DNA of 32,000 nucleotides from Candidatus Jordarchaeales archaeon (lineage in GTDB: Archaea > Asgardarchaeota > Jordiarchaeia > Jordiarchaeales > Freyrarchaeaceae): assembly GCA_038889235.1 (NCBI GenBank), contig JAWAHN010000001.1, positions 764,499 to 796,498 of the forward strand, in the 5' to 3' direction. Every line of letters begins with the position of its first letter. Within the stretch, counting starts at the first letter, position 1. This document shows, piece after piece, positions 8,197-8,684 of the stretch. The notes beneath the pieces were generated by a model. That model was not told where the DNA came from. It searched no databases and was given only the letters and a program-made list of their open reading frames with translations. Position numbers and translations under genes: made by a program.

Positions 8197-8317
8197 AACC
8201 TACACCTTCTAAAGGTTAATAACGCTCAATCCTCGCCACAGAATTTCTCCCAAAACTAAAACAGGAAGAAAGAATCCCCTTTAATCTAAAAAATCACAAA
8301 AATGGAAAAAGCGAAAG

Positions 8318-8331
8318 GAAAAAGATAAATA
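8318..8331 (+). promoter_or_regulatory. BRE/TATA promoter of the tRNA gene
   Basis: GAAAAAGATAAATA ends about 33 nt upstream of the tRNA 5' end. Near-identical elements lie at 11001-11014 (+) and 13886-13902 (-). Confidence 0.6.
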
Positions 8332-8364
8332 GCCTCCTTCTCTGAAAGAATTCTTGGAACCCAC

Positions 8365-8534
8365 GGGGGCGTGGTCTAGATATCGGGCAGCTGAAGCCCC
8401 GATAGGGGAGCCTGGTATGAGCCCGATAGGTCCTCCTGTCGGGGTATAATTCCTGCCTGGGGCGCAGAGCGGTGTAGGGTATTCTACACCGTTAACGTAA
8501 GCGGTCCCGAGTTCAAATCTCGGCGCCCCCACCA
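8365..8534 (+). tRNA. tRNA-Pro(GGG) with three non-canonical introns and genome-encoded CCA
   Basis: Exons 8365-8379, 8411-8420, 8450-8467 and 8501-8534 join to GGGGGCGTGGTCTAGCCTGGTATGATTCCTGCCTGGGGCGCAGGCGGTCCCGAGTTCAAATCTCGGCGCCCCCACCA. Acceptor stem GGGGGCG/CGCCCCC, anticodon stem CCTGC/GCAGG, anticodon GGG at 8459-8461, T-arm CCGAG-TTCAAAT-CTCGG. Introns 8380-8410, 8421-8449 and 8468-8500 are all hairpins. Confidence 0.9.
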
Positions 8535-8684
8535 ACAATTTTCTTAATAAAAGTTTATCTTTACATAAGAATTCTGATTATAACAAGTTTTTAAATTGTT
8601 GTTTTCCTTAAGTTGGAGGAAGAAAAACATTAAAGTCTTCTTAGTTCGAGTTATTTTAAAGTAATTTTATATGGTGGGTAGCGC

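Follow-up and report, generated by a model that had tools for sequence, protein, structure and literature searches.

The first two introns of a tRNA-Pro(GGG) gene in a hot-spring Asgard archaeon of the Jordarchaeum type share a short stem whose arms are swapped between the one and the other, and this relation is more than chance easily gives. Our preferred reading, which we hold tentatively and as somewhat short of probable, is that the relation was left behind by local copying between the two neighbouring introns, both of which were already in place, and that the pairing which the relation allows between them is a by-product. Under this reading, the core of intron 2 would be approximately the reverse complement of a circularly permuted intron 1, derived from a local copying event for which template switching, short-patch conversion or an RNA-mediated copy are the candidate mechanisms, and the cross helices would compete with the splice-competent fold and give it no help.

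The tRNA-Pro(GGG) gene and its splice motifs

Neither ARAGORN nor any of the Rfam models detected the unspliced gene anywhere in the window, that is, the whole stretch of 32,000 nt that was analysed. The gene was solved by hand from the archaeal bulge-helix-bulge (BHB) splice geometry and from its orthologs. In the geometry used, the last four exon bases enter the central helix and are followed by a 3-nt bulge that is cut after its second base; then come the inner intron hairpin, four intron bases that pair with the exon, and the second 3-nt bulge. The four exons obtained in this way (Table 1) join to a sequence of 77 nt, which ARAGORN calls as tRNA-Pro(ggg), and removal of the introns restores the cloverleaf here and in nine orthologs, as for archaeal BHB introns. 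The intron limits of the original prediction had to be moved outward, as its strings for introns 1 and 2 correspond to the inner hairpins only. Upstream of the gene, by about 35 nt, lies an A/T-rich stretch (8325..8331, plus strand) which we take to be a candidate TATA-like box. An open frame of 85 aa on the minus strand (8281-8538) spans the entire tRNA gene and is almost certainly no gene.

Table 1. Features of the tRNA-Pro(GGG) gene, the pairings between its introns, and the splicing enzymes of the genome (positions are those of the window unless a contig is named)
Feature	Position	Strand	Remark
tRNA-Pro(GGG) gene, encoded CCA, three BHB introns	8365..8534	+	joined exons called by ARAGORN
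Exon 1	8365-8379	+	
Intron 1, 31 nt, tRNA positions 15/16	8380..8410	+	boundaries yield same mature tRNA in five genomes
Intron 1 central helix	8375-8377 with 8405-8407	+	100% paired, five genomes
Intron 1 bulges	8378-8380 and 8409-8411	+	
Intron 1 inner hairpin	8381..8404, arms 8381-8387 and 8398-8404	+	7 Watson-Crick pairs
Exon 2, 10 nt, D-loop and 3' strand of D-stem	8411..8420	+	one variable site, five genomes
Intron 2, 29 nt, tRNA positions 24/25	8421..8449	+	in-silico splicing, five genomes
Intron 2 central helix	8415-8418 with 8444-8447	+	4/4 paired in 5/5 genomes
Intron 2 bulges	8419-8421 and 8448-8450	+	
Intron 2 inner hairpin	8422..8443, arms 8422-8430 and 8435-8443	+	9 pairs, one G-U
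Exon 3	8450-8467	+	
Intron 3, 33 nt, tRNA positions 42/43	8468..8500	+	hairpin 8470-8477 with 8484-8491
Exon 4	8501-8534	+	
T-rich stretch directly after CCA, putative terminator	8539..8546	+	read from sequence
Direct 9-nt repeat, spacing 24	8398-8406 and 8422-8430	+	intron 1 3' arm = intron 2 5' arm
Cross helix A	8396-8414 with 8427-8445	+	18/19 positions paired; minimum-free-energy fold
Cross helix B	8381-8388 with 8421-8428	+	8 perfect pairs; inverted repeat, 100%
EndA-domain ORFs and RtcB	G000:C1:1056473-1056727 (+), G000:C3:444309-444566 (-), G000:C1:704115-705422 (-)		

The motifs of introns 1 and 2 are of the relaxed HBh' type, with an outer helix that is almost missing. Intron 2 forms all four pairs of its central helix and intron 1 three of four (two of them G-U), hence its description as relaxed; 3-nt bulges are present at both sites of both introns, and the inner helices, of 7 and 9 bp, are paired in five genomes. 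In the motif of intron 3, as read from the sequence, the central helix has three of four pairs and there are two extra unpaired bases, so that this motif is relaxed as well. Across the five genomes of the family comparison, namely this one (G000) and four relatives (G001-G004), the local BHB structure is paired in 95.5% of cells, with both central helices at 100% and two compensatory pairs. The inner hairpin of intron 1 is paired in 100% of cells and has one compensatory exchange from G-C to A-U, and that of intron 2 is paired in 89%, one of its pairs appearing as G-C, A-U or A x C.

The enzymes required are encoded in the genome as two ORFs with an EndA domain (PF01974; 205 and 195 aa) and one RtcB (Table 1). 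The presence of two EndA subunits suggests a heteromeric endonuclease of the broad-specificity type. According to PMC5829648, non-canonical introns are cut only by the heteromeric and epsilon types of endonuclease, so the two EndA ORFs together with RtcB fit the enzyme types that such introns need. Each intron would be recognised through its own relaxed BHB motif, closed by the inner hairpin. Since the motifs of introns 1 and 2 have no base in common, each is separately cuttable, and the two-subunit endonuclease would cut each motif before RtcB rejoins the exons.

Two short similarities were observed in the gene besides the relation between introns 1 and 2. Intron 3 begins with a 6-nt copy (8468-8473) of the sequence across its own 3' splice site (8500-8505), that is, of its last base and the first five bases of the following exon, so its 3' arm is able to pair with the intron or with the exon. 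In addition, the 3' end of intron 2 (8442-8449) is similar to the end of the preceding exon (8413-8420).

The shared stem: chance, copying and age

That introns 1 and 2 have the same stem with swapped arms, as the original prediction had it, is confirmed by the direct 9-nt repeat of Table 1. Because both arms of this repeat have local partners, the one repeat generates both of the cross pairings. The reverse complement that had been described is cross helix B, exact over 8 nt (100%), and the other pairing, proposed for 8397-8406 with 8435-8444, does form at 10 positions, one of them a G-U. The extent of the latter had been underestimated, as it belongs to cross helix A, which runs without a break for 13 pairs (8396-8408 with 8433-8445) and, if continued into exon 2 beyond a single A x C mismatch, pairs 18 of 19 positions.

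The original prediction had already raised the possibility that such similarity is expected by chance for short GC-rich stems. Plain shuffles of introns 1 and 2 give P = 0.002 for the shared 9-mer, and a null that keeps both hairpins, permuting only the order and orientation of their base pairs, gives P = 0.005; when the full 167-nt gene is shuffled the value is only P = 0.03, which has to be read against the 18 genes examined and the many comparisons made across the whole scan. Those 18 recognisable pre-tRNAs come from a strict search for T-arm and acceptor stem, a relaxed search having returned 629 candidates that were mostly false, and the 9-mer is the longest internal repeat among them. 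It is not enriched in the genome as a whole (12 copies vs ~15 expected) and was not found in other tRNA contexts of the genome. Nor did a search of the genome's other tRNA introns find it, and blastn-short against the whole genome returned no further copy of introns 1-3.

The duplex between the two introns points the same way as the word. Measured against the hairpin-preserving null, it has P = 0.0005 in this genome and 0.001-0.05 in the four relatives, the five tests not being independent because the five genomes are kin. As a control we used 428 pairs of non-homologous real introns from these genes, which have a mean of -11.3 and a best value of -22.3 kcal/mol; intron 1 with intron 2 reaches -26.9, -24.1 and -23.5 kcal/mol in three genomes, beating all 428 controls, and -18.7 and -16.9 kcal/mol in the remaining two. 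The remaining intron pairs within these genes have common words of at most 6 nt. Finally, the genome was scanned, free of annotation, for pairs of hairpins with swapped arms. Besides the present locus, the scan returned tandem repeats within coding sequence and two further, unrelated loci, as against ~0.2 per shuffled genome. The scan tolerated one G-U, and its exact-complement version passes over this locus. A search by removal of intron subsets yielded many ambiguous ARAGORN-compatible products, some of them wrong for this gene, and our claims on other intron pairs are limited to the annotation-free scans. A side scan of the genome also brought up, as long direct repeats outside the window, CRISPR-like arrays with a repeat of 36-39 nt (contig C3 ~467.9-469.8 kb and ~2-3.4 kb, and C5 ~21 kb, all in minus-strand coordinates).

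Coincidence assisted by shared constraints is unlikely in view of these tests, although it keeps an appreciable weight. Two short GC-rich stems would here coincide, with the match partly forced: in intron 1, pairing with the D-stem requires the GG of the shared word; the hairpin of intron 2 inherited its CCC/GGG base, whose CCC the sister family has too; and the loop, rich in pyrimidines, lies opposite a helix strand rich in purines. In the sister family, intron 2 has its CCC...GGG ends and its C-rich loop while showing no relation to intron 1, and pyrimidines facing purines pair in three of four combinations, which explains most of the seemingly free loop pairs. After subtraction of the forced parts, the unexplained coincidence is nearer 5-6 nt. 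The absence of genome-wide enrichment, the P of 0.03 for the whole-gene shuffle with 18 pre-tRNAs examined, and the direct common word of only 4 nt in the outgroup G004 all agree with this explanation. It is harder to reconcile with the hairpin-preserving null, which in this genome assigns the word P = 0.005 and the duplex P = 0.0005, with the three genomes that surpass every real-intron control, and with the near absence of arm-swapped pairs from shuffled genomes.

If the two introns are related by copying, the orientation of the copy matters. We tried every rotation of intron 1, in both orientations, as an alignment to the core of intron 2. A rotated reverse complement fits this core along its length, matching 19 of 23 positions with a single gap; P is below 0.004 in this genome and 0.007-0.037 in the relatives, and this model is the best one in 5/5 genomes. 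Much of this match is supplied free by hairpin symmetry, so the antisense fit is weak evidence for a mechanism. Alternatively, the intron 2 core can be described as repeating, in inverted orientation and imperfectly over 19 bp, the 3' half of intron 1 together with the four bases that open exon 2. A tandem copy of the preceding 25 nt was considered and rejected, as TRF reported no repeat and the direct-copy alignment has P of 0.06-0.24.

The original prediction had instead taken the arm swap as a possible record of a same-strand event, in which a circle of intron 1 was reopened and reinserted nine positions downstream, beyond the 10 nt of exon 2, as intron 2. That the swap records relatedness is upheld insofar as it exceeds the usual similarity of short GC-rich stems, but its same-strand form is disfavoured and we regard it as highly improbable. 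The arm order is what permutation gives, the rotated intron 1 alignment has P = 0.017 in this genome, and circular tRNA introns are known from archaea and animals, according to PMC4090602 and PMC4536317. However, the same-strand rotation matches only at the shared arm of 9-10 nt, and its P rises to 0.06-0.67 in G001-G004, where the reverse complement is significant. A same-strand circle further predicts a purine-rich ligation junction in the loop of intron 2, whereas the observed loop is pyrimidine-rich and the junction is absent from it. There is also no other copy in the genome, the sister family has a 24/25 intron with the same ends and without the similarity, and a 2026 census (preprint 10.64898/2026.10.13.758758) detected no general route of copying, and hardly any reverse transcriptases, in Asgard genomes. 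It is also improbable, if less remote, that the hairpin core of intron 2 is strictly an antisense, circularly permuted copy of intron 1 placed in a neighbouring splice-competent site; such a copy could have come through cDNA of the intron circle or through template switching at the level of DNA.

The four orthologs of the family share the intron boundaries. Their mature sequence is identical in three of the four and differs at two bases in G003, and all other variation among the five genomes is confined to the predicted introns. Exact-pattern scans of metagenome and genome contigs found no orthologs beyond these four known relatives; the order and class contain 11 genomes only. A tree of the syntenic downstream gene has the form (G004,(G000,(G001,(G002,G003)))), and on this one-gene tree the genus ancestor would already have had the shared 8-mer. 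In G004, which belongs to another genus, a 7-nt reverse-complement match persists alongside a direct match that has decayed to 4 nt. The relation between introns 1 and 2 would date at least to the genus ancestor. G002 and G004 (loci L003 and L005) are not sisters on this tree and depart from the common 8-mer at the same two sites, by C to T in intron 1 and by A to G in intron 2; parallel changes, an exchange between the lineages or an error in the tree could each explain this.

The sister family of the same order extends the comparison. Its gene, spliced in silico, is also a tRNA-Pro(ggg) and has five introns, at 15/16, 24/25, 25/26, 39/40 and 58/59. Its intron 2, of 28-31 nt, has the same first four and last eight bases, and its hairpin cores are unrelated. 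The cross complementarity in the sister family, measured for intron 2 against the 3' half of intron 1 extended by four exon bases, amounts to -4 to -6 kcal/mol, which is no better than shuffles. Judging from these sequences, introns most likely occupied positions 15/16 and 24/25 already before the two families separated, and the likeness of introns 1 and 2 most likely arose or survived in one family only. The presence of introns at both positions in the sister family argues against the birth of intron 2 from intron 1.

The reading we favour, local copying between two introns already in place, accommodates this history. It also takes in the P of 0.002-0.005 for the 9-mer, the P of 0.0005-0.05 for the cross duplex in each of the five genomes, the duplex above all 428 control pairs in 3/5 genomes, and the 19/23 fit of the rotated reverse complement. 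Against it stand the decomposable nature of the similarity, the restriction to five related sequences, the multiple testing, and a locus at which no footprint of a mechanism was found, neither a flanking duplication nor a clean junction.

Intron positions also differ between the genes compared. In all relatives (L002:1502-1695, L003:1501-1695, L004:1501-1695, L005:1504-1689 (minus); L042-L045), exon 3 is the single nucleotide T25, flanked by introns at 24/25 and 25/26. The BHB motifs of these two introns overlap, so their joint formation is impossible, and the central helix of the 25/26 intron goes from three to four of four pairs once intron 2 is removed. The genome of the window has no 25/26 intron, and the junction is exact (8449/8450/8451), a precise intron loss. 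In the Jordarchaeum family the intron of the anticodon arm is at 42/43, as against 39/40 in the sister family, which could be sliding or independent gain, and the sister family additionally has the T-loop intron at 58/59.

Cross helices, folding and the order of splicing

As a duplex, cross helix A has an energy of -32.5 kcal/mol (RNAduplex); the underlying repeat has five G-U positions and one mismatch. In folds of the whole precursor under the nearest-neighbour model, its pair probability is 0.97-0.99 at 37-75 C, and that of cross helix B is ~0 in every predicted fold; helices A and B together would be a pseudoknot. Two motifs that lie 10 nt apart and share a stem thus leave the naked precursor predicted in a fold that hides both of them. 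The predicted occupancy of the cross fold varies among the relatives, from 0.65-0.96 in G003 and 0.3-0.5 in G002 to ~0 in G001 and G004. The local hairpin of intron 2 is itself rarely predicted, so the folds say little about the enzyme-bound state.

The original prediction had suggested that the competing helices enforce a splicing order or act as a folding switch. The topology of the nested helices speaks against an ordering role: either cross helix draws one arm from each of the two introns, so that its forming or melting would block or release both BHB motifs together and could impose no order. At most, then, such a helix is a possible on/off trap. A pseudoknotted variant that keeps the core of the intron 2 motif while holding the 3' end of intron 1 would, if it forms, make intron 2 the first to be spliced. 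The switch fares better in one respect, since cross helix A is a serious thermodynamic competitor in this genome, but the compensatory changes track the local hairpins and not the cross helix.

This is best seen at the pair 8426:8439, for which the likely state of the genus ancestor is A x C. The pair was mended to A-U here and to G-C in G002, and the local hairpin gains by either change, the cross helix by one of them only. Cross helix A retains an A x C mismatch in 4/5 genomes. It is paired in 85% of cells and has one compensatory exchange, and its covariation is no better than that of column shuffles (121-202 of 500). On the other hand, the 3' end of intron 1 finds its complement, at 8-9 of 10 positions and in 5/5 genomes, in the loop and distal 3' arm of intron 2, in G004 mostly within a 12-nt loop; the one A-U for G-C exchange in this complementarity is found in G003.

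It is in our judgement improbable that the pairing of the 3' end of intron 1 with the loop and 3' arm of intron 2 is deliberately maintained by selection, either as an on/off switch that keeps the D-arm introns unspliced or as a pseudoknot that makes intron 2 first, and in the latter case guards the small exon 2 against release by two simultaneous cuts. In favour of this reading, exon 2 measures only 10 nt. The predicted ensemble is dominated by the cross fold in this genome and in G003, and partially so in G002, and the complementarity is kept at 8-9 of 10 positions with its compensatory G-C to A-U change. However, the sister-family introns flank the same 10-nt exon without cross complementarity, the helix is predicted to be absent in G001 and G004, and its nested form would be unable to order splicing. 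The mismatch persists in four genomes at a place where the local hairpin was repaired twice. With covariation no better than in shuffles, no cross helix in the sister family and an occupancy that ranges from 0 to 0.99, the pattern is not that of a selected switch.

These same observations, namely the repairs at 8426:8439, the mismatch in 4/5 genomes and the unconserved dominance of the cross fold, favour a by-product of local copying. Two points weigh against it: the loop complementarity is kept in five genomes, which selection could explain too, and the near-total cross fold predicted here seems costly for something functionless.

Relation to known systems

Heavily interrupted tRNA genes are a hallmark of the Jordi- and Freyrarchaeaceae. 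The preprint 10.64898/2026.10.13.758758 gives 2.0-2.4 introns per tRNA gene in this family and D-arm introns that are missed by software; its text was found to contain neither this gene nor its intron relation, nor the string 'Jordarchae', the name 'Jordiarchaeaceae' being used. In our 2.14-Mb genome, RF00005 recognises 12 tRNAs only and the strict search 18, so that most tRNA genes must be interrupted, some of them in the T-arm or acceptor stem; the RF00005 count matches the intron-rich, software-missed genes of the preprint. In its short hairpin introns in D-arm and anticodon-arm positions, the gene resembles the multi-BHB non-canonical introns of the Thermoproteales and of the Freyr- and Jordiarchaeaceae. 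It also shares with the non-canonical introns of Asgard archaea and Thermoproteales a relaxed BHB at each junction, two endonuclease subunits, RtcB, and D-arm introns that finders miss. A practical question is raised by such genes, namely how multi-intron precursors with exons of 10 nt and 1 nt are processed without losing the small exons.

Sequence shared between introns at different positions is known from tRNA intron transposition in the Thermoproteales (Fujishima et al. 2010, as described in PMC4090602). The transposed introns described there occur in different tRNA genes as colinear copies with an identity above 70%. In contrast, the relation reported here lies within one gene, between neighbours 10 nt apart, involves the hairpin core only, and is permuted or antisense with no copy elsewhere in the genome; colinear copies of at least 70% identity in other tRNA genes were not found, and the introns do not form a transposed family of the Thermoproteales type. 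The census of 2026 (preprint 10.64898/2026.10.13.758758) concluded that introns were gained many times, with almost no copying between tRNA types, and left the route of arrival open. It compared only same-orientation copies between tRNA types, so an antisense or intragenic route lies outside its test. If true, the antisense-copy reading would be a route by which intron sequence spreads and would bear on how introns arrive.

With attenuators and the expression platforms of riboswitches the locus has in common four segments, two mutually exclusive pairings, and one pairing that hides processing sites. It differs from them in that there is no ligand, the alternative helix occurs in one family only, and covariation is not above controls. 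Comparable, too, are hairpins that, according to what Löytynoja and Goldman (in 2017) and Mönttinen and Löytynoja (in 2022) are said to have found, are created or kept by template switching in DNA replication. The likeness consists in the use of nearby sequence as an inverted copy, here the long imperfect inverted repeat 8396-8414/8427-8445. The repeat differs in having five G-U positions and one mismatch, and we treat the resemblance as a lead. The evidence comes from one locus in one family, which again makes it a lead and not a rule; if recurrent, a permuted or antisense relation within genes would indicate local templated copying as a source of intron hairpins. [quoted passage not shown]
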